Below are positions 733-53,840 of a DNA stretch of 64,000 nucleotides, piece after piece (the stretch's first letter is position 1; every line of letters starts with the position of its first letter). The DNA comes from Candidatus Woesearchaeota archaeon. GTDB taxonomy: Archaea; Nanobdellota; Nanobdellia; SCGC-AAA011-G17; GW2011-AR20. Both the position numbers and the translations under genes were made by a program. The notes beneath the pieces were generated by a model. That model had not been told where the DNA came from. It worked only from the letters and a program-made list of their open reading frames with translations, and ran no database searches. The stretch spans positions 2,002-66,001 of the forward strand of contig CAYQPR010000002.1 in assembly GCA_964419925.1 (NCBI GenBank). Direction: 5' to 3'.

Positions 733-1232
733 ACGTCTAAATTAAGGTTTAAAAAGATTTTGCTAATAATTCATACTTCTTTCTTTTCCGCCACGTTTGT
801 AAACACGATCTCTTCTTTTTGCTAATTTATCCCTTTTACTTTTTCGTTTACCATAACTTGGTTCATCATCACTCATTCTAAATTAGTTAATAAATGGGTA
901 TATAAATTTTATCCTAAACAATCCGAACTAGAATAACCCTCATTAAAAAAATAATGATTACTACTTAATAAAATAATTCGTTTACGAATTAAATAAGAAA
1001 TACCGTTTTTGATATCATTAATTGGTATAGGTTTACAATCTAATTTAGTATTATCAGCAATATCTTCCAAATTTCCATTACCACCCATTTTCTCCAAAGA
1101 AATACCAATACAATGCCTTACAACTTCTTTATACGGAACACCGCCCCAAATTGCCATACAAATGACCATTATCGATAAACTAATAAATCTTTCCAAAGCA
1201 CAATTATTCAAGTAAAATTGAACACATTTTTC

Positions 1233-3806: not shown

Positions 3807-4492
3807 ATGAATTATTAGTTAAAGACAAAGAAATTGTAATTCCGGGACAAGAATTAGCAGATAGTATGGAATATCTTCCAAGCCACGGAGCATTTAGAGA
3901 AGGAAATAAAATAATCTCAAATTATTTAGGATTAGTAAGTATCAATGAAAGATTCATAAGGGTTATTCCATTAACAGGAAAATATGTTCCAAAAGTTAAT
4001 GATACGGTTGTAGGAAGGGTAGTTGATATCGGATTTTATGGATGGACAATTGATCTCGGATGTGCATATAATGGGGTTCTAAGCATAAGAGAAACCGCAG
4101 ATTTCATTGAAAAAAATGATGATTTAACAAAATATTATGATTATGGGGATTTAGTCGTTGCTAAAATTGTCAAAGTGACAAGACAAAAATCTGTTGATTT
4201 AAGTACAAGAGGACCTGGATTAAGAAAATTAATTGGAGGAAAAGTAATTGAAGTTACTCCAAGCAAAGTTCCAAGAATGATTGGAAAACAAGGAAACATG
4301 ATTGGGATGATTAAAGAAAAAACAGGTTGCAATATGTTAATAGGACAAAATGGAAGAGTTTGGTTAAAAGGAGAAAATACTGAAAAAGAAATTTTCGTTA
4401 CAAAGATTATTTTAAAAATAGAACAAGAGTCACATACAGAAGGATTAACAGATAAAATAAAAAATATGCTCGAGGAAAAAAATGACGGATAA
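3803..4492 (+). CDS. rrp4: exosome complex RNA-binding protein Rrp4 (S1 + KH)
   Basis: S1 domain (VVGRVVDIGFYGWTIDLG) followed by a KH motif (IGKQGNMIGMIKEKTGC). Start and stop overlap with neighbours. Confidence 0.8.
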   Translation: MNELLVKDKEIVIPGQELADSMEYLPSHGAFREGNKIISNYLGLVSINERFIRVIPLTGKYVPKVNDTVVGRVVDIGFYGWTIDLGCAYNGVLSIRETADFIEKNDDLTKYYDYGDLVVAKIVKVTRQKSVDLSTRGPGLRKLIGGKVIEVTPSKVPRMIGKQGNMIGMIKEKTGCNMLIGQNGRVWLKGENTEKEIFVTKIILKIEQESHTEGLTDKIKNMLEEKNDG

Positions 4493-29553: not shown

Positions 29554-31440
29554 ATGAGTTTTAAAGACCTAATTAAAGTAATTAAGAAATATAATCCTGA
29601 ATCAAACATTGAGCTAATAATGAAAGCTTACAGTTTTGCTTCAAAAAAACATCTTAAACAAATTAGAGAATCAGGACATCCTTACATTACCCATCTTGTT
29701 GGAGCTGCTGGAATCTTAGCCAACTTAAAAACAGATGACGAAACAATTGCAGCTTGCTTATTGCACGATACCTTAGAAGATACGAATACAGCCGAAGAAG
29801 AATTAAAAGAAAATTTTGGAGAGGATATTCTAAATCTAATAAAAGGAGTCACAAAAATTAGTAAATTAGTTCTTCCAGATTTTAAAGAAAGACAAGTAGA
29901 GAGTATAAGAAAAATGTTAATTGCAAGCACAAAAGATATTCGAGTTATTTTAATAAAATTAGCCGATAGATTAAACAACATGTATTCTCTTAAATATTTT
30001 CGTGAAGAAAAACAAAAAAGAATAGCAAAAGAAACATTAGAAATTTATGCGCCTTTAGCTTATAGGTTAGGTTTGTTTAATATAAAATGGCAGTTAGAGG
30101 ATTTATCTTTTAGATATTTAGAACCTAAAATTTATCAAGAAATAAAATCAAAAGTTGTTAAAACAAGAAATGAAAGGGAATCAGAGATTAAAAAGATTAA
30201 ATCAATAATAGAAAGAGAGTTAGCAAAACGCAATATAAATGCACAAGTATTTGGAAGAGCAAAAAGTTTCTACAGTATTTACAAAAAAATAACTGAAAGA
30301 AATAAAACAATAGAAGGTATGTATGATTTAATTGCATTAAGGATATTGGTAGAAAAAAAACAACAATGTTATGAAGTTTTAGGAATAATTCATAATTTGT
30401 TTAAACCTGTAGAAGGGAAGATTCAAGATTATATTGCAAACCCAAAACCAAACATGTACCAAAGCTTACATACAATTATTCTTTACAATGAAGATCAAGT
30501 AGAAATCCAAATATTAACAAAAGATATGCATTTGATAAATGAAGAAGGAATTGCGGCACATTGGAGATATAAAGATAAAAAATCTATAAATGATCCTGAA
30601 TTTGAGAAAAAGTTAGGATGGATTAAAGAAGTAATTAACCTAAAATCAAATATGGGAGAAGATTTTCTTGAAAGATTAAAGATTGATTTATTTTTAGACC
30701 ATATCTTTGTTTTTACTCCAAAAAATGATATTGTTGAGCTTCCAAAAGGAGCGACATTACTTGATTTTGCCTATGCCGTACATAGTGATTTAGGAAATTC
30801 ATGTATAGGTGGAAAAGTAAATGATAAATTTGTAAATTTAAAGCACGAACTAAAAAATACTGACCAAGTTGAGATATTAGTTTCAAAAAATCAAAAACCG
30901 AGCAGAGAATGGTTAAAATTTGTTATTTCTCAAAGAACAAAGGAAAAAATTGCACACTATTTAAGAATGCAAAATGAAATTCCAATATCAAATCTAAGAA
31001 AGATGATTAATGAAAAAAATAGTTTAATAAAAAGCGAAACAAAGTCAACTTTTATTAAGATTTCCGAATGTTGTGACCCAATTCCAAATGATCCGATTAT
31101 TGGATTAAGCACAAAAAATAACAAAATTACAGTGCATAAAACAAATTGTAGCAAACTAAATACATTTAGCTTAAAAAAAGTAAAAGTATTTTGGAATGAT
31201 GAAATTGGGTTAACCGTAAATATCAAAGTTATAGCTTCAGATAGATTAGGGTTATTTGCAGACGTTTTAAAAAATATATCTTCATTATATCTAAACATTG
31301 AAAAAGCAAGTGCAAAAACAATCAATAAAGAATTAGGAGAATGCAACATTAAAATTAAAGTAAATTCTTTAGAAGATATAAAAAAAATTGTTGATCAAAT
31401 AAAAAAAATAAATGATGTTAGAAAAGTTAGTTTGAGTTAA
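29554..31440 (+). CDS. long RelA/SpoT homolog (HD hydrolase + (p)ppGpp synthetase + TGS + ACT)
   Basis: HD motif HPYITHLVGAAGILA...LLHDTLEDT. Synthetase motif RAKSFYSIYKKI...YDLIALRILV. TGS IFVFTPKNDIVELPKGATLLDFAYAVHSDLG. C-terminal ACT-like region. Confidence 0.85.
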   Translation: MSFKDLIKVIKKYNPESNIELIMKAYSFASKKHLKQIRESGHPYITHLVGAAGILANLKTDDETIAACLLHDTLEDTNTAEEELKENFGEDILNLIKGVTKISKLVLPDFKERQVESIRKMLIASTKDIRVILIKLADRLNNMYSLKYFREEKQKRIAKETLEIYAPLAYRLGLFNIKWQLEDLSFRYLEPKIYQEIKSKVVKTRNERESEIKKIKSIIERELAKRNINAQVFGRAKSFYSIYKKITERNKTIEGMYDLIALRILVEKKQQCYEVLGIIHNLFKPVEGKIQDYIANPKPNMYQSLHTIILYNEDQVEIQILTKDMHLINEEGIAAHWRYKDKKSINDPEFEKKLGWIKEVINLKSNMGEDFLERLKIDLFLDHIFVFTPKNDIVELPKGATLLDFAYAVHSDLGNSCIGGKVNDKFVNLKHELKNTDQVEILVSKNQKPSREWLKFVISQRTKEKIAHYLRMQNEIPISNLRKMINEKNSLIKSETKSTFIKISECCDPIPNDPIIGLSTKNNKITVHKTNCSKLNTFSLKKVKVFWNDEIGLTVNIKVIASDRLGLFADVLKNISSLYLNIEKASAKTINKELGECNIKIKVNSLEDIKKIVDQIKKINDVRKVSLS

Positions 31441-46007: not shown

Positions 46008-46733
46008 GTGGAATTAAAAGAAAGGATAAAAAACCATTCATTGTATAAGAAGACATTAGAAAATAGATATTTAGCAATATTTCTACTATTAGTGATAATT
46101 CTAATGACTTACAGTTATTTTAAAGAAGGAATCGTTTATCAAATAAGCGATGTAAATCTAGAGGGGGTTAAAAATTTTATTAATTCATTTGGAAATTTTT
46201 CATGGATAATTTATGTTCTTACTTTAATTTTAATATCAATATTTCCAGTTCCATCAACAATAATTAATGTTGCAGGAAGTTTATCTTTTGGGCCATTAAA
46301 TGCAGTATTTTTAACATTAATTGGAGCAGTTTTAGGAAACAGTATTGATTACTTCATTGCAAGAAGATATGGGTATGAGCACATTAAACAAATTATTAAT
46401 GAGAAAAGAAGAGAAAAATTTGATGATTACTCTAAAAAATATGGTTATTTGGTGTTGTTCATTTTAAGATTAAATCCCTTAACATCAACAGATATTTTTA
46501 GCTATTTATCGGGGTTAATTGGAATGCCATTTAAAAAATTTTTACTCAGTACCATTTTTGGAATACTTCCGGGGATTATTTTTGTCTCTTATTTTGGAAG
46601 TAGATTTATAAATGATAATAAACTATTTAGATTAACATTTGTTATTATAACGATGTTTTATGCATTAATAATGGTTTATTTGATTTTAAGATTTTTAAAA
46701 AAGAAAGTTAAAGAAAGATTTGTTAAGAAATAA
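46008..46733 (+). CDS. DedA/TVP38 (SNARE-associated) family membrane protein. Possible GTG start.
   Basis: FPVPSTIINVAGSLSFGP...GAVLGNSIDYFIARRYG is the DedA signature. Confidence 0.65.
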   Translation: MELKERIKNHSLYKKTLENRYLAIFLLLVIILMTYSYFKEGIVYQISDVNLEGVKNFINSFGNFSWIIYVLTLILISIFPVPSTIINVAGSLSFGPLNAVFLTLIGAVLGNSIDYFIARRYGYEHIKQIINEKRREKFDDYSKKYGYLVLFILRLNPLTSTDIFSYLSGLIGMPFKKFLLSTIFGILPGIIFVSYFGSRFINDNKLFRLTFVIITMFYALIMVYLILRFLKKKVKERFVKK

Positions 46734-46734
46734 G

Positions 46735-46842
46735 AGCGTGGAGCAGGATTCGAACCTGCGGAGTAATCGCTATCTCCCCGTGGTCTGCAGGTTGGACTTT
46801 CTTTTGGAAATCGATCCCCTTAGGCCACTTGGGTATCCACGC
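46735..46842 (-). tRNA. Intron-containing tRNA. The anticodon loop reads either TTTCCAA (Gly-TCC) or ATTTCCA (Glu-TTC) depending on the stem register. Roughly 33 nt of extra sequence lies in the anticodon region.
   Basis: Acceptor GCGTGGA/TCCACGC. D-arm with AGTGGCC. T-arm GCAGG-TTCGAAT-CCTGC. 108 nt between the acceptor ends. Confidence 0.6.
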
Positions 46843-47661
46843 TTATAGGGAATTAATATCAAGAATACCTTTTAATAACTTTCGTCTTTGTTCTAAGGTG
46901 GTGTGTATTGGGCAGAATCCAAACCTCTTCCATACAAAATATTTGCTGTAATGTTTTGGGTTGCTAAACCCAATAATGGTAATCCATTTTTCCAAATTTT
47001 TCTTGCCAACAATCACAACACGATAATGTTTAAACACCCTATTATTTCGCTTACGTTTTCCTTTCTCTAAATAACTATGTATTCCCAACTTGTTTAATAA
47101 CACCTTTAACTGTTTTGTTAATTTCTCTGAGGCAAATTGACCTCCAATTAATGGGTAATGATGTTTCTTAAATTTGGTATCTTTTCTTATTTTAAACACC
47201 AAATAAAAATCCGTATCAGCAATTCCCCTAATTAATGCAGAAATAATTTTATTATCCTTAGTTTCAAAAAAATATTTGGGTATTTTATAAGAATTATCCA
47301 ATTTATTTCCAGGTGTATATTTCATATTTTTAACGAAAAAATTAATTATAGATTTAGAGGTTACACAGATTTTTATTCCATTTGTTCCAGAAATTTTACG
47401 AATATATGGCCTTACGTTAAAAAGATTGTAAAATAAATCTGATATTATAATGTTATGATAATCTAAATCTTCTTGAGCATGTCCGTATACAAATAACTCA
47501 TATTTTCTTCTGTTAGATGGTTTTTCTTTTAAATGGATGCACCCGTCTCCAATCATTAAACCAAATAATTCTGCCAAATCAGAAGTTAATTTATTAGGCA
47601 AATGAACATCTCTTTTTATATCTGAATTACTGAATGAAATTTTTGAGTTATCAAATATCAT
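46843..47661 (-). CDS. double-motif LAGLIDADG homing endonuclease, free-standing
   Basis: Motif 1 LAELFGLMIGDGCI and motif 2 ISALIRGIADTDFY. 272 aa. A TATA-like TTTATAA lies about 30 nt upstream. The ORF ends exactly where the tRNA gene begins. Confidence 0.75.
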   Translation of the reverse strand: MIFDNSKISFSNSDIKRDVHLPNKLTSDLAELFGLMIGDGCIHLKEKPSNRRKYELFVYGHAQEDLDYHNIIISDLFYNLFNVRPYIRKISGTNGIKICVTSKSIINFFVKNMKYTPGNKLDNSYKIPKYFFETKDNKIISALIRGIADTDFYLVFKIRKDTKFKKHHYPLIGGQFASEKLTKQLKVLLNKLGIHSYLEKGKRKRNNRVFKHYRVVIVGKKNLEKWITIIGFSNPKHYSKYFVWKRFGFCPIHTTLEQRRKLLKGILDINSL

Positions 47662-47760
47662 TTTTATATCAAAAATCTCTTCTTACTTATAAAGTTGACC
47701 CGCGAGGTTGTCACTTGGACAGTTGGGAAAAAATGTATATTTTAAAGAATATAAATAAAA

Positions 47761-47835
47761 CGGGCCTGATGGGATTTGAACCCACGATCTTCAGCTTAGA
47801 AGGCTGACATCCAATCCAGGCTAGACGACAGGCCC
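47761..47835 (-). tRNA. tRNA-Arg (anticodon TCT), no intron
   Basis: Acceptor GGGCCTG/CAGGCCC. Anticodon arm TCAGC-CTTCTAA-GCTGA. T-arm GTGGG-TTCAAAT-CCCAT. Discriminator G. Confidence 0.75.
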
Positions 47836-47879
47836 ATAATAAAAACCACCTCTATGAAGATATTTAAACCTTTTCAAAA

Positions 47880-48485
47880 TTATTTTTTCCATTTAGAAAT
47901 CCATTTACCCATCTTAAAATGTAATAAAACGCTTCCAAAAAGGATACCTAAACTTCCATAAACCTTATCTAAAAAAGAATCAAAATCCGCATTTTGATAA
48001 AAATCATAATACATAATTGTTCCAAATATTTTATCCCCATAAAACTCATATTTCTCCCATAAAAAAACTCCAAAGATTAAAGTAAAAATAATTGAAAAAA
48101 TAATGGATTCATTAACATTGGTATCTTTTTTAGTTAAATATGTTTTAAGAATATAATAAAGAACGGCAAAGATTATGGTATAAAGAATTAAATTAAAAAA
48201 ATGAACATAGCTGTCAAAGTCGATTGAATTATCTAAAAATAATGTCAATATCATACTCATAACAAGTAAGAATAAAACAAATATTTCTAAGGTGTATAAT
48301 AAATTTTTATTATAATTTAATTTTATGTAATTTAAGCTAAATAAAAATTTTGGTATGAGCATCAATAAAGGAACAACAACTATCCACATAACCGTCAAAA
48401 AATAATTCTTTTGAAAAAATTTTAATATTCCCATAAGTATTACGATAAAAATAATTATGCGATAAATTAACTTGAATAGTTCCAT
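47880..48485 (-). CDS. polytopic membrane protein of unknown function
   Basis: About six hydrophobic helices. No motif. Confidence 0.45.
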   Translation of the reverse strand: MELFKLIYRIIIFIVILMGILKFFQKNYFLTVMWIVVVPLLMLIPKFLFSLNYIKLNYNKNLLYTLEIFVLFLLVMSMILTLFLDNSIDFDSYVHFFNLILYTIIFAVLYYILKTYLTKKDTNVNESIIFSIIFTLIFGVFLWEKYEFYGDKIFGTIMYYDFYQNADFDSFLDKVYGSLGILFGSVLLHFKMGKWISKWKK

Positions 48486-51395: not shown

Positions 51396-53840
51396 ATGTA
51401 TAACTTTAAAGAAATAGAAGAAAAATGGCAAGATAAATGGGAAAAATCAAAAATATTTAAAGTTAAATTAGATAATAAAAAAAAGAAGTTCTATAATTTA
51501 GAAATGTTCCCGTACCCCTCAGGTGCCCTGCACATGGGTCATGTAAGAAATTATTCAATCGGTGATGCATATGCAAGATTCAAAAGAATGCAGGGTTATA
51601 ATGTTCTTTATCCAATGGGTTATGACGCTTTTGGTTTGCCAGCAGAGAATGCGGCTATAAAAAATAAAATAAATCCAAAAGATTGGACATTTAACAATAT
51701 AACGATAATGAAAGAACAGCAGATGCAATTAGGCTTAAGTTACGACTGGGATAAAGAATTAGCAACATGCACATCAGAATATTATAAATGGAATCAGTTT
51801 ATATTTCTAAAATTTTATGAAAAAAATCTTGTTTATAGAAAAGAAGCTTTAGTTAATTTCTGTAATTCATGTAAAACCGTTTTAGCAAATGAACAGGTTA
51901 TAAACGGAAAATGTTGGAGATGCAAAAACGAAATTGAGTTAAAAAATTTAGAACAATGGTTTTTGAAGATTACAGAATATGCTGAAGAATTATTAAACGA
52001 TTTAGACAAATTAGACTGGCCTGAAAAGGTTAAGATAATGCAAAAAAATTGGATTGGAAAAAGTGAAGGAACCCTAATTAAGTTTCAATTAGAAAATTCA
52101 AAAGAATATTTAGAAGTGTTCACAACGAGACCCGATACACTATACGGAGTAACATTCGTTACAATGGCTCCAGAAAATCCCAAAGTTGCTGAGTTAATTA
52201 AAAATCATAAAAACAAAGAAAGTATTGAAAATTTTATCAAAAAAGTTATCAACGAAGAAAAGTTTTCAAGAACAGCAGAAGATAAAGAAAAATATGGAAT
52301 TCCATTAAATAAAAATGTTATTCATCCATTAACCAATGAAAAAATTCCAATTTACTTAGCTAACTTTGTTTTACCCGATTATGGAACTGGAATTGTAATG
52401 GGTGTTCCAGCCCATGATCAAAGAGATTTTGAGTTTGCAAAAAAGTATAAGTTACCTGTTAAAGTTGTAATAACTCCAAAAGATAAAAAATTAACAGATT
52501 TAAAAGAAGCTTATTTAGGTGAAGGAATTTTAATTAATTCAAATAAATTTAATGATTTAGAAAACAAAAAAGGCGTTGAAGAGATCACTAAACATTTATC
52601 TGGATTAAAACTTGGAAAAAGAGAAATTCAATATAAATTACGTGATTGGTTAATTTCAAGACAAAGATATTGGGGAACGCCAATTCCTATAATTTACTGT
52701 AACAATTGCGGAATTCTTCCAGAAAAAAATCTTCCAGTTAAATTGCCTGAAAATGTTAAGTTTACTGGAGAAGGAAATCCACTTAGTTCCTCAAAAGAGT
52801 TTATTAATGTAAAATGTCCAAAATGTAATAAACAAGCCAGAAGAGAAACAGACACCATGGATACTTTTTTTGACTCCTCTTGGTATTATTTAAGATACTG
52901 CGATGTAGACAATGATAAACTACCTTTTTCTAAAAAAAATGTTAATTACTTTATGCCCGTAGATCAATACATCGGCGGAATAGAACATGCAATATTACAT
53001 TTACTTTATTCAAGATTTTTCACAAAAGCATTCAGAGATTTAAAACTATTAAATTTTAATGAACCGTTTAAAAAATTATTAACACAAGGGATGGTGCTAA
53101 AAGATGGAGAAGTGATGAGTAAGAGCAAAGGAAATGTTGTTGATCCTAGAACAATAATTGAAAAATACGGAAGCGATTCATTAAGAACTTTTATTTTATT
53201 TATAGCTTCTCCAGAAAAAGAATTCAATTGGAGTGATGATGGTATTGAAGGAATTTTTAAGTTTTTGAATAGAGTTTATTCCTTATTAGATAAGATAAAT
53301 AAAAAAAATGATTTAATTGTTGAAAGCAAATTAAATAAATTGATTAAAAAAGTTACAGAAGAAATTGAAAATTTCAAATATAATAACGCAATAATTTCCA
53401 TAATGGAATTTAGTGATTATATAAAAGACAAGAATTATGATAAAAATACTTTAACGAAATTAATTTTATTGTTTAGTCCATTTTCACCTCACCTTGCAGA
53501 AGAAATGTTTTCAAAATTAGGAAACAAAGGATTTGCTTCTTTAGAAAAATGGCCAAAATGCGACGAGAAGAAAATTAATGAAAACTTGGAGAAAGAAGAA
53601 GAAATTATTGAAAAATTAATTCAAGATATTAAAAATATTAAAAAATTAGCAAATATTGAAAATCCAGAAGTTTACCTTTATTGTATTCCAAAAGAAATTG
53701 ATTTGTATGAGAAAAATAAAGATAAAATTAAAGATTGTAAAAACATTAAAATTTATGCTGTTAACGACAAAAATAAGTTTGATCCAGAAAATAAATCTTC
53801 TAAAGCTAAATTAGGAAAACCTGCGATATATTTAAAATAA
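51396..53840 (+). CDS. leuS: leucyl-tRNA synthetase, bacterial-type
   Basis: FPYPSGALHMGHVRNYSIGDAYARFKRMQGYNVLYPMGYDAFGLPAENAA (bacterial LeuRS HMGH region) and VMSKSKGN (KMSKS). 814 aa. Confidence 0.85.
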   Translation: MYNFKEIEEKWQDKWEKSKIFKVKLDNKKKKFYNLEMFPYPSGALHMGHVRNYSIGDAYARFKRMQGYNVLYPMGYDAFGLPAENAAIKNKINPKDWTFNNITIMKEQQMQLGLSYDWDKELATCTSEYYKWNQFIFLKFYEKNLVYRKEALVNFCNSCKTVLANEQVINGKCWRCKNEIELKNLEQWFLKITEYAEELLNDLDKLDWPEKVKIMQKNWIGKSEGTLIKFQLENSKEYLEVFTTRPDTLYGVTFVTMAPENPKVAELIKNHKNKESIENFIKKVINEEKFSRTAEDKEKYGIPLNKNVIHPLTNEKIPIYLANFVLPDYGTGIVMGVPAHDQRDFEFAKKYKLPVKVVITPKDKKLTDLKEAYLGEGILINSNKFNDLENKKGVEEITKHLSGLKLGKREIQYKLRDWLISRQRYWGTPIPIIYCNNCGILPEKNLPVKLPENVKFTGEGNPLSSSKEFINVKCPKCNKQARRETDTMDTFFDSSWYYLRYCDVDNDKLPFSKKNVNYFMPVDQYIGGIEHAILHLLYSRFFTKAFRDLKLLNFNEPFKKLLTQGMVLKDGEVMSKSKGNVVDPRTIIEKYGSDSLRTFILFIASPEKEFNWSDDGIEGIFKFLNRVYSLLDKINKKNDLIVESKLNKLIKKVTEEIENFKYNNAIISIMEFSDYIKDKNYDKNTLTKLILLFSPFSPHLAEEMFSKLGNKGFASLEKWPKCDEKKINENLEKEEEIIEKLIQDIKNIKKLANIENPEVYLYCIPKEIDLYEKNKDKIKDCKNIKIYAVNDKNKFDPENKSSKAKLGKPAIYLK

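Follow-up and report, generated by a model that had tools for sequence, protein, structure and literature searches.

A LAGLIDADG endonuclease gene in the spacer of a tRNA-Arg/tRNA-Cys tandem: a probable free-standing homing element beside archaeal tRNA introns

Results

Layout of the locus

The window is a stretch of 64 kb from a DPANN-type archaeon, and all coordinates given here and in Table 1 are positions within it. It contains only two tRNA genes, tRNA-Arg and tRNA-Cys, both complete, and exactly between them is an ORF on the minus strand (46843..47661) encoding 272 aa. The original prediction had the ORF ending 1 nt before the downstream tRNA, which needs correcting: the TAA stop (46843-46845) touches tRNA-Cys nucleotide 1 (46842), and the gap is 0 nt. 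The tRNA-Arg that was reported 100 nt upstream is present and on the same strand, at a distance of 99 nt from its 3' end to the endonuclease ATG. The 3' 25-mer of tRNA-Arg is common to 98 metagenome stretches, and the comparison of related loci below indicates that this gene is the upstream partner of an ancestral tRNA-Arg/tRNA-Cys tandem.

Table 1. Features of the endonuclease locus, from upstream to downstream on the minus strand
Feature	Position	Strand	Remarks
Putative BRE/TATA of tRNA-Arg, GAAAAGG TTTAAATA	47861..47875	minus	archaeal-type, 25 nt upstream of +1
tRNA-Arg(TCT), 75 nt, intronless	47761..47835	minus	Rfam tRNA 59.8 bits; ARAGORN Arg(tct)
Endonuclease cassette (upstream region + ORF), 918 bp	46843..47760	minus	replaces the 2-4 nt spacer of empty alleles
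Conserved GC-rich 21-mer, CCAACTGTCCAAGTGACAACC	47706..47726	minus	just upstream of the endonuclease TATA box
Putative TATA box of endonuclease gene, TTTATAAG	47686..47693	minus	24 nt before ATG
LAGLIDADG motif 1, LAELFGLMIGDG	47539..47577	minus	residues 29-41 (LAELFGLMIGDG at 29-40); IGDG kept in 14-sequence alignment
Catalytic Asp39 codon, motif 1	47545-47547	minus	GDG aligned to GDG of I-DmoI
LAGLIDADG motif 2, LIRGIADTDF	47206..47238	minus	residues 142-152 (LIRGIADTDF at 143-152)
Catalytic Asp151 codon, motif 2	47209-47211	minus	D151 invariant, 14 homologues
BRE/TATA-like element, GACGAAAG TTATTAAAA GG	46868..46886	minus	within last ORF codons, 27 nt before tRNA-Cys +1
tRNA-Cys(GCA), 108 nt	46735..46842	minus	Rfam 39.3 bits vs gathering score 29
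Intron 1, 20 nt, tRNA position 30/31	46792..46811	minus	strict 3-4-3 hBHBh' motif
Intron 2, 13 nt, canonical position 37/38	46772..46784	minus	relaxed BHB

The endonuclease

LAGLIDADG homing endonucleases make a site-specific cut within a DNA target of 14-22 bp. The two LAGLIDADG motifs first noticed from the sequence alone in the 272-aa ORF are confirmed. A profile search assigns the protein to Pfam LAGLIDADG_3 with a value (2.4e-8) that clears the curated threshold, PDB entries that it matches include I-DmoI and a VMA-intein endonuclease domain, and both motifs stand in the alignment with homologues. Two motifs in one chain make the protein one of the double-motif monomer type. The catalytic acidic residues that the original prediction proposed checking are both retained as Asp, and in motif 2 the residues R145, D149, T150 and D151 show no variation among 14 homologues. 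The AlphaFold2 model has a pLDDT of 89.9 and a pTM of 0.89, and its secondary-structure assignment comprises two alpha-beta-beta-alpha-beta-beta-alpha repeats. Foldseek aligns it with I-DmoI at a TM score of 0.74 of the target and E about 1e-10, and further top matches are I-Tsp061I and PI-PfuI. The dN/dS ratio is 0.08-0.12 against homologues 70% and 57% identical, indicating that purifying selection acts on the ORF. Judged by sequence and model, this is an intact LAGLIDADG homing endonuclease with an I-DmoI-like fold, and it is predicted to be active.

The tRNA-Cys gene and its two introns

On the whole window the downstream tRNA was missed by ARAGORN in default mode and by Rfam in gathering mode. 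ARAGORN -i calls it Ile(TAT/UAU), and hand readings of the anticodon gave Gly(UCC) and Trp(CCA). We rejected these and accepted Cys(GCA) because no other reading agrees with the discriminator U73, with the intronless orthologues found in synteny and with a strict bulge-helix-bulge (BHB) motif. The exons lie at 46812-46842, 46785-46791 and 46735-46771, with the anticodon GCA at 46786-46788 and a discriminator U. Excising tRNA positions 32-51 and 59-71 leaves a 75-nt cloverleaf that ARAGORN reads as tRNA-Cys(gca). The exons align to 7 intronless tRNA-Cys genes and are 92% identical to the one at the related locus L082 (loci fetched for comparison carry L numbers). In practice, default annotation misses or misnames such intron-rich tRNA genes; gene callers also extend endonuclease ORFs into adjoining tRNA genes.

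The downstream tRNA was correctly called intron-bearing, with the difference that it holds two introns and not one. Intron 1 has a central helix H of GGAU/GUCC, bulges CG|A and AA|C, and an inner helix UUUC/GAAA, scoring H 4/4, h 2 and h' 4 in BHB enumeration, and it forms as well in the minimum-free-energy structure predicted without constraints. Helix H shows covariation across 11 tRNAs, and the corresponding intron of L107 is 19/20 identical, its single change preserving pairing. Intron 2 has 3/4 pairs in its central helix and gains a 6-bp outer helix once intron 1 is gone; an intron at 37/38 is also found in L009 and L107. These features identify both inserts as predicted archaeal BHB introns. 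Relaxed motifs such as that of intron 2 are tolerated by the broad-specificity splicing endonucleases of the heterotetrameric alpha-beta and epsilon2 types (PMC3239211).

Whether the ORF might itself be an intron was another matter raised by the original prediction. No BHB motif brackets it: a long-range search for one around the whole ORF gave only AT-rich noise and no spanning candidate. With hits allowed up to E = 10, the interval 46600-47950 yields neither a group I/II ribozyme nor another relevant known RNA. A sub-threshold HPnc0260 match in that interval was discarded as the antisense of tRNA-Arg.

Promoters and the conserved upstream element

All promoter assignments here are consensus resemblances in AT-rich DNA. 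The tRNA-Arg element recurs as GAAAAGATTTAAATA at equal distance in 8 related loci, and from consensus only we infer that GAAAAGG TTTAAATA is the native tRNA-Arg promoter. Inside the cassette, TTTATAAG is likely the endonuclease TATA box; a TTTATAA is invariant at 21-30 nt before the ATG in the window, L001, L099 and L009. Its distance of 24 nt from the ATG means that a leaderless or short-leader endonuclease mRNA would result.

The GC-rich 21-mer that precedes this box is present in a single copy in the window, against a chance expectation of 0. It is identical in L001 and matches at 19/21 positions in L099, whose ORF is only about 33% identical to its best-matching query, P0004. Possibly it acts as an operator. 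We rejected the 21-mer as a repeat or viral element, given that it is unique in the window and absent from viral contigs, and we also rejected the upstream element as a leftover tRNA-Cys 5' exon, with which it shares only the letters CCAAGTG.

The BRE/TATA-like element embedded in the end of the ORF keeps a distance of 25-27 nt from the tRNA that follows in four loci (the window, L001, L009 and L099), a spacing that matches the native tRNA-Arg promoter. It appears to be a candidate replacement promoter for tRNA-Cys.

Empty and filled alleles

The original prediction proposed a search among relatives for presence/absence polymorphism, and it was found. Eleven related metagenome contigs carry the tRNA-Arg, a spacer of 2-4 nt, an intronless tRNA-Cys and a VTT/DedA gene. 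The closest comparison is between L139, which is empty, and L148/L001, which are filled: their flanking DNA is 92% identical and the VTT protein beside the locus 94.5% identical, while nothing in L139 corresponds to the 915-918 bp cassette of L148, which is homologous to that of the window. With the tandem uninterrupted in 11 relatives, one of them with flanks 92% identical to a filled allele, the 918-bp cassette represents an insertion polymorphism. Natural empty and filled alleles come from one project and two Hainich sites, H43 and H51.

In the VTT gene tree the window and L001 fall into separate host clades, each closer to empty alleles than the two are to one another, and their endonucleases are 70% identical vs 50% for their VTT proteins. 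These comparisons indicate that the endonuclease gene is patchily distributed relative to host phylogeny. On the right flank, identity is 80-88% across the tRNA-Cys adjacent to the cassette and 93-98% in the DNA further out, which may reflect co-conversion; on the left flank the values are noisy, with no clean gradient. L099 provides a second insertion site, where the cassette lies between the tRNA-Arg promoter and tRNA-Arg and the same upstream region recurs at 86% identity.

Homologues across DPANN archaea

A free-standing copy beside a tRNA gene had been thought unusual for archaea, which does not carry over to this family, where it is the commonest setting among DPANN homologues. Of the 43 genome loci, at least 22 have a tRNA, on either strand, that abuts the 3' end of the ORF, where chance would give about 4% (P about 3e-20), as scored with a home-made heuristic tRNA finder for the fetched loci. 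Roughly half of the homologues next to a tRNA lie on the strand opposite to it, which weakens co-transcription or processing as the cause of the adjacency. Some homologues are located inside 23S rRNA, and in one case, L015, the ORF is contained in a tRNA-Phe intron at position 30/31 that has a strict BHB motif. In a neighbour-joining tree without support values the endonuclease clades group by tRNA identity (Phe; Cys/Arg; Ile), with several neighbouring tRNAs that were ambiguous by automated splicing identified by eye from anticodon-loop signatures. The enzymes of the window clade are more closely related to those of rRNA introns than to the tRNA-Phe clade.

Association of the endonuclease with ORF-less introns

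The endonuclease gene adjoins a tRNA with an ORF-less intron in the window and in L009, L012-14, L035, L040, L043, L050, L053 and L059. For tRNA-Cys, introns are present in 0/11 empty alleles vs 3/3 alleles with a co-oriented endonuclease directly upstream (Fisher p = 0.003, with shared ancestry ignored), and intron 2 in particular is missing from 11/11 empty-site alleles. Introns at 30/31 occur in 11 tRNAs, 10 of them beside or containing an endonuclease family member, in a set of fetched loci that contained no tRNA-Phe genes without a neighbouring endonuclease. The window and L107 share 95% identity in intron 1 against only 83% in the exons.

The association has exceptions. In L115 and L017 the tRNA-Cys next to the endonuclease is intronless. 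In L107, which shares both introns with the window, the spacer holds a methyltransferase gene; L136 combines an intron with a Fic gene, and the intron of L001 is at a D-loop position rather than at 30/31 and 37/38. Introns are in any case frequent here: taking all tRNAs of the fetched loci, about 35% exceed 78 nt in length.

Discussion

How the cassette may move

We think it probable that the ORF represents a selfish homing-endonuclease gene, intact and free-standing, carried in a cassette of about 0.92 kb that was inserted exactly into the tRNA-Arg(TCT)/tRNA-Cys(GCA) spacer. Our best reading is that the endonuclease would target the tRNA locus, as an archaeal counterpart of phage T4 SegB. Of the explanations offered at the outset, an endonuclease directed at the tRNA gene or its intron site is favoured: the insertion polymorphism, the clades that track tRNA identity and the L015 copy in a 30/31 intron all point that way.

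The cassette, made up of its own TATA box, the conserved upstream element and the ORF, would move as one unit. The enzyme would cut cassette-free alleles, either at the tRNA-Arg/tRNA-Cys junction or in the anticodon arm of the intronless tRNA-Cys (CCGCCTGCAGAGCGG), and repair of the double-strand break would copy the cassette along with tRNA sequence at its sides. The final codons, which specify RKLLKG (AAAGTTATTAAAAGG), may double as the BRE/TATA promoter of tRNA-Cys; with a promoter embedded there, insertion would leave the tRNA unsilenced and deletion of the cassette would be costly. Host promoters inside endonuclease ORFs are known in T4 (PMC2988022). The two ORF-less introns of tRNA-Cys would either have travelled with the cassette or shield the resident gene, and this is the weakest step.

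Alternatives and the place of the introns

Most in question, then, is what the introns have to do with the enzyme. They may be unrelated bystanders of a kind common in intron-rich DPANN lineages, with classical homing alone at work: the enzyme would recognise the tRNA-Arg 3'/tRNA-Cys 5' junction, and the cassette would split that site. We take this seriously without thinking it likely. The cassette does fill the 2-4 nt spacer exactly, T4 SegB has a tRNA intergenic region as its target (PMC2988022), and bystander status agrees both with the abundance of long tRNAs in the fetched loci (about 35%) and with the exceptions, namely the endonucleases with intronless tRNA-Cys in L115 and L017 and the introns without a spacer endonuclease in L107 and L136. 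It does not readily account for tRNA-Cys introns being confined to one side of the 11/11 vs 3/3 split, for the 30/31 position recurring in 11 tRNAs of which 10 are next to or contain a family member, for the member inside such an intron in L015, or for an intron 1 that is better conserved between the window and L107 than the exons around it. A free-standing endonuclease may instead cooperate with ORF-less tRNA introns. In its general form, which we put forward tentatively and regard as rather unlikely, DPANN LAGLIDADG lineages, each tied to one tRNA, would practise collaborative homing with ORF-less BHB introns at 30/31 (often with a second at 37/38), the enzyme cutting the intronless anticodon arm.

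Two further possibilities concern the ORF itself. The locus could be a relic of an ORF-bearing tRNA-Cys intron, with the ORF left outside by rearrangement and the 20-nt intron at 30/31 as the remnant. The L015 homologue within a 30/31 intron gives this some footing, as does the window's mini-intron, which shares the position and the bulge nucleotides CG|A and AA|N, but we consider it quite improbable: no BHB motif brackets the ORF, the empty alleles have the ancestral tandem uninterrupted with the cassette wholly in the spacer, an exit from an intron does not account for the opposite-strand half of the tRNA-adjacent homologues, and the window clade is closer to rRNA-intron enzymes than to the tRNA-Phe clade. 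The degenerated mobile intron of the original prediction is likewise unsupported, with no bracketing BHB motif, no group I ribozyme and the cassette in the spacer. That the ORF encodes a domesticated host protein, a regulator or pre-tRNA factor co-transcribed with the tRNAs and freed by RNase P and tRNase Z, seems to us very improbable. A gene that is missing in 11 syntenic relatives, one of them near-isogenic, that varies across its family in orientation to the tRNA and that retains its catalytic residues hardly looks like a fixed host function, and BHB splicing requires no maturase (PMC3239211); purifying selection, the tight packing between two same-strand tRNA genes and the conserved operator-like upstream element are the points in its favour. 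The non-mobile protein considered at the outset is disfavoured on the same absence from relatives and intact catalytic residues. We return to the selfish homing gene as the preferred explanation.

Significance for archaeal tRNA introns

Archaeal tRNA introns are excised by a protein enzyme, and we know of no means by which they move. The locus and its relatives put active-looking homing endonucleases beside such introns, and once inside one, which provides a testable lead on how the introns spread. If collaborative homing holds, an intron would shield the resident gene and spread with the adjacent endonuclease gene, and an occasional move of the endonuclease into the intron would produce a self-contained mobile BHB intron such as L015. 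It would then supply the missing DNA-level mechanism for archaeal tRNA intron gain and transposition, and would recast the intron protection of tRNA genes, the threat being a nuclease and not an integrating element. A 2014 review gives the mechanism of archaeal tRNA intron transposition as unknown and lists guarding against integrating elements as one proposed intron function; homing is absent from it (PMC4090602). The natural empty and filled alleles make intron spread and tRNA protection experimentally addressable questions.

Comparison with known systems

The nearest parallels are free-standing endonucleases with 'intronless homing' in general and T4 segB in particular, which sits between tRNA-Arg and tRNA-Ile and whose target is the tRNA intergenic region (PMC2988022). 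Both are free-standing endonuclease genes between two tRNA genes, present or absent among relatives. SegB differs in being a GIY-YIG enzyme of a bacteriophage, whereas the window has a LAGLIDADG enzyme on an archaeal chromosome; the neighbouring tRNA of the window also has BHB introns, unlike that of SegB, and for the window we infer both mobility and target.

Among enzymes, the window protein resembles I-DmoI, I-Tsp061I and I-PorI as a double-motif monomer in which each motif supplies one acidic residue for catalysis, and some of its homologues lie in 23S rRNA. Unlike theirs, the window gene is outside any intron, and at 272 aa the protein has N- and C-terminal extensions relative to the I-DmoI type (about 190 aa), with identity below 25%.

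Collaborative or trans homing is known for cyanophage F-CphI with the psbA intron and for T4 mobE with I-TevIII (PMC6083498, PMC2790892, PMC2988022). The likeness is in a free-standing endonuclease gene beside a conserved gene with an ORF-less intron, and in a family that also includes a fused form, L015, whose ORF is contained in the intron. F-CphI and mobE work with self-splicing group I introns in phages, whereas here archaeal tRNA genes carry BHB introns that are spliced by proteins; the intron co-occurrence of the window family has exceptions, and cleavage at the insertion site is hypothetical here.

Archaeal tRNAs with up to three introns each are known (PMC3239211). The tRNA-Cys of the window follows the pattern of ARMAN and Thermoproteales tRNA introns, in combining a non-canonical intron that has a strict 3-4-3 hBHBh' motif with a second intron at 37/38, and it departs from them in the physical link of an endonuclease family to such introns.

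The endonuclease ORF and its tRNA neighbors

The most likely reading, from comparison of sequences, is that the LAGLIDADG gene in the window belongs to a free-standing homing-endonuclease cassette whose target is the tRNA-Arg/tRNA-Cys locus and whose spread relies on double-strand-break repair. The original prediction of a tRNA-flanked LAGLIDADG ORF is borne out by the Pfam match and by a tRNA on each side on the same strand, although the 1-nt gap it gave to the downstream tRNA is actually 0 nt. The G+C of the window is ~27%.

Coordinates of the features discussed (L-numbers are loci fetched from relatives)
Feature	Sequence	Positions	Strand	Remarks
LAGLIDADG ORF, 272 aa	window	46843..47661	minus	Pfam LAGLIDADG_3 2.4e-8, above curated cut-off
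tRNA-Arg(TCT)	window	47761-47835	minus	ends 99 nt upstream of ORF ATG
tRNA-Cys	window	46735-46842	minus	base 1 directly after ORF TAA stop
GC-rich 21-mer CCAACTGTCCAAGTGACAACC	window	47706-47726	minus	just upstream of probable TATA box
same 21-mer	L001	2930-2950		
same 21-mer	L099	1700-1714	minus	
tRNA-Phe gene with 218-aa LAGLIDADG ORF in intron	L015	2970-3695		
same	L049	1024-1749		
tRNA-Ile (UAU), adjoins endonuclease	L003	3867-3984		
same	L018	3315-3462	minus	
RelA/SpoT homologue	window	29554-31440		full-length; HD, RelA_SpoT, TGS, ACT domains
LeuRS	window	51396-53840		Pfam editing-domain insertion
cassette, 915 bp	L148	3558-4472		
tRNA-Arg	L148	3469-3554		
cassette-end repeat ATTCTATAA	L001	~2900-2915 and 3809-3817		
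cassette-end repeat ATATTCTT	L099	~125-135 and 935-945		tRNA-Arg-oriented

Solved structures matching the ORF are I-DmoI and the endonuclease domain of a VMA intein. The AlphaFold2 model, built on a 14-sequence alignment, has a pLDDT of 89.9 and a pTM of 0.89 and holds two alpha-beta-beta-alpha-beta-beta-alpha repeats; the PDB entries that match it best are an endonuclease domain from a VMA intein, I-DmoI (TM 0.74 of target), I-Tsp061I and PI-PfuI. IGDG is conserved in the family alignment and R145, D149, T150 and D151 are invariant, so neither of the catalytic acidic residues (D39, D151) has been lost. The dN/dS values of 0.08 and 0.12 against homologues 70% and 57% identical are rough because dS is saturated, but they show clear constraint on the protein. 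From these features the endonuclease looks active.

Two other genes in the window, the RelA/SpoT homologue and a LeuRS whose editing-domain insertion we take to be of bacterial type, stand on an otherwise archaeal-looking contig and may be horizontal acquisitions. The host is taken to be a DPANN archaeon from the labels of its relatives, the BHB (bulge-helix-bulge) introns and the BRE/TATA-like promoters.

tRNA-Cys and its two introns

The downstream tRNA is detected neither by default ARAGORN nor by Rfam in gathering mode over the whole window. An Rfam search limited to a small region gives it 39.3 bits, the gathering score being 29. With its intron search switched on, ARAGORN names the tRNA Ile(TAT). 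That call was rejected because of the U discriminator, the CUGCAGA held in the sequence, the plain anticodon arm (ACCGC-CUGCAGA-GCGGU) of its syntenic counterpart in L001, a 70%-identical locus, the bulge-helix-bulge (BHB) geometry, the ARAGORN call on the spliced product, and the intronless orthologues. On this evidence the gene is tRNA-Cys(GCA), interrupted by two predicted BHB introns; the original prediction was right that an intron is present, and implied one instead of two.

The BHB was taken to be a 4-nt strand of the central helix (H) followed by a 3-nt bulge in which the cut falls behind the second base. The 3-4-3 hBHBh' description agrees with this geometry (PMC3239211). Intron 1, which occupies tRNA positions 32-51 and interrupts site 30/31, is a strict BHB with H GGAU/GUCC, bulges CG^A and AA^C (^ marking the cut), an inner helix of 4 bp and an outer one of 2 bp, and its substructure is also present in the unconstrained minimum-free-energy fold. 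Intron 2, positions 59-71, lies at the canonical 37/38 site and forms a relaxed BHB once intron 1 is removed (H 3/4, outer helix 6 bp). The 75-nt spliced product folds as a cloverleaf, is called tRNA-Cys(gca) by ARAGORN, and its exons align with intronless tRNA-Cys genes of related contigs (92% identity to L082).

The variable region, usually 4-5 nt, has 6 nt in the window tRNA-Cys (46735-46771 segment) and in several intronless tRNA-Cys (L065, L115, L001). In L001 and L009, gene callers carry the endonuclease ORF on into the tRNA, and in L099 and L019 it is the longest ORF that overruns it; such tRNAs are probably undercounted in DPANN annotation.

Filled and empty alleles

All sequences considered here are metagenome assemblies. 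A metagenome collection was scanned with the 25-nt tRNA-Arg 3' end common to the window and L001. Eleven contigs have tRNA-Arg, 2-4 nt, an intronless tRNA-Cys of 72-74 nt, and then an opposite-strand VTT/DedA gene as in the window, while the same spacer holds a 918-bp cassette in the window and in L001 (the same contig as L148). The empty L139 and the filled L148 are 92% identical in their flanks (2.6 kb to the left, 0.87 kb to the right), and the VTT proteins are 94.5% identical. The part of L148 without a BLAST counterpart in L139 (3558-4523) is the cassette plus ~50 nt of diverged sequence at the start of tRNA-Cys. The VTT tree puts the window and L001 in different host clades, each nearer to empty alleles than to one another; their endonucleases are 70% identical, but their VTT proteins only 50%. 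By these comparisons of related genomes, which the original prediction had proposed, the cassette is an insertion polymorphism.

Next to the cassette, the tRNA-Cys genes of L148 and L139 are 80-88% identical, against 93-98% for the DNA just beyond, which looks like a co-conversion tract, although the left flank is noisy. The L148 tRNA-Arg differs from that of L139 by ~15%, mostly in compensatory stem changes, and the neighboring LeuRS DNA is ~92% identical. The pattern is consistent with both tRNAs having been imported with the cassette, though the gradient is not clean.

In other lineages this spacer carries different cargo, namely a SAM-methyltransferase gene in L107 (821-nt spacer) and a Fic-domain gene in L136 (1198-nt spacer), with L075 and L152 as further examples. 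It thus looks like a hot spot for insertions in general.

Relatives and tRNA identity

Only 14 family proteins were found in a large protein collection, and their contexts make three classes: inside archaeal 23S rRNA (P0006, P0009), inside a tRNA intron, and directly upstream of a tRNA with ORF-less introns (tRNA-Cys in L001 and L009, tRNA-Phe in L012-14, tRNA-Ile(UAU) in L003). The protein inside a tRNA intron, P0012 of L015, lies in a strict BHB intron of 652 nt that interrupts tRNA-Phe(GAA) at position 30/31. The 5' exon ends ...GCGCACG, and the BHB has CGCA/UGCG as H, CG^A and AA^G as bulges and an inner helix of 11 bp. The ATG of P0012 is intron base 1, its stop is 5 nt into the 3' exon, and splicing yields tRNA-Phe(gaa). 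The literature searched contained no description of BHB tRNA introns that bear an endonuclease.

A genome scan with one genome per species returned 43 loci, mainly DPANN (Woese-, Nano-, Aenigmat-, Iain-, Micr- and Pacearchaeota), together with several MAGs that carry the label Hadarchaeota/Hadesarchaea, Methanosarcinales or unclassified archaeon, and two named as CPR bacteria. Our heuristic tRNA finder, which asks for a T-arm and a perfect 7-bp acceptor stem, recovers all Rfam calls and the 726-nt L015 gene. With it, a tRNA overlaps the ORF 3' end or lies within ~60 nt of it in at least 22 of the 43 loci (10 on the same strand, 11 opposite, and L049 containing the ORF) and probably in five more; chance adjacency is ~4% and the excess has P ~3e-20. 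In a neighbor-joining tree without support values, the endonucleases cluster by the identity of the neighboring tRNA and not by orientation. The tRNA-Phe clade joins same-strand, opposite-strand and in-intron members; the Cys/Arg group holds the window, L001, L009 and L017, with L019 and L115 nearby; further groups are a tRNA-Ile(UAU) pair and a 23S rRNA clade. Because the association follows tRNA identity regardless of orientation, it points to a DNA-level relationship, that of a target, and not to co-transcription.

In the L003 tRNA-Ile, site 37/38 is interrupted by a 26-nt intron and the variable region by a second insert, and the L003 and L018 archaea apparently decode AUA with a UAU tRNA.

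Whether introns and endonuclease go together is less uniform. tRNA-Cys is intronless in 11/11 empty alleles and has introns in 3/3 cases with a co-oriented endonuclease directly upstream (window, L001, L009), counts that ignore shared ancestry. By our heuristic BHB scorer, 11 tRNAs (3 Cys, 8 Phe) have a strict 30/31 intron, with H maintained by eight different sequence pairs; 10 of them adjoin or contain a family member, and the L107 contig stops short of the upstream region. Intron 1 is 19/20 identical between the window and L107, the single change keeping the pairing, with exons 83% identical. Against the link, the tRNA-Cys next to the endonuclease is intronless in L115 and L017, the intron of L001 is in the D-loop and replaces the 30/31 + 37/38 pair, the L107 spacer holds a methyltransferase gene while the related contig L099 has the endonuclease one gene upstream, and the L136 spacer holds a Fic gene.

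Cassette ends and putative promoters

The window, L001 and L099 share a conserved 99-nt region upstream of the ORF. Window and L099 agree at 86% of it, although the L099 protein is only ~33% identical to its best family match, P0004. TTTATAA, invariant at 21-30 nt before the ATG, is probably the TATA box for a leaderless mRNA. The 21-mer, unique within the window and kept between cassettes whose proteins share only ~33% identity, could be an operator or other signal. In L099 the cassette lies between the native tRNA-Arg promoter and tRNA-Arg, so the same unit is found at a second site, and there too it stops at the 5' end of a tRNA. The last ORF codons in the window, L001, L009 and L099 read GACGAAAG(T/A)TATTAAAAGG, 25-27 nt ahead of +1 of the downstream tRNA, resembling the native tRNA-Arg promoter GAAAAGATTTAAATA at 24-25 nt before +1. 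From these consensus matches in AT-rich DNA we infer that the cassette supplies a promoter to the tRNA it has cut off from the original one.

Short direct repeats at both cassette ends in L001 and L099, weaker in the window (ATTCTTTAA vs ATTCCCTATAA), may be microhomology for insertion or excision, or chance in AT-rich DNA.

Probable mechanism and known systems

Two possible targets agree with these results. The enzyme might cut where the two tRNA genes meet, a site that the cassette splits, or it might cut the anticodon arm of tRNA-Cys without introns, a pseudo-palindrome (CCGCCTGCAGAGCGG) that the two introns would interrupt on either side of its center. An endonuclease left behind as the relic of an ORF-bearing intron is a weak alternative. 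P0012 shows an ORF inside such an intron in tRNA-Phe, but no BHB was found to bracket the window ORF, which is therefore not an intron-encoded member of the family. Also weak is a domesticated protein, which the original prediction attached to degenerate catalytic residues and a locus lacking polymorphism; here the residues are intact and the alleles differ. The mobile cassette remains the preferred reading, and the protein has the tested features of the monomeric LAGLIDADG family, to which we assign it.

Archaeal tRNA intron reviews in the literature searched make no mention of homing endonucleases and call the transposition mechanism unknown. An anticodon-arm target would amount to collaborative homing, described for phage group I introns (PMC6083498, PMC2790892, PMC2988022). 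In T4, host promoters embedded in endonuclease ORFs are thought to favor retention of the endonuclease gene (PMC2988022). Among known systems T4 segB comes closest: this free-standing GIY-YIG gene lies between tRNA-Arg and tRNA-Ile, and its target is the tRNA intergenic region (PMC2988022).
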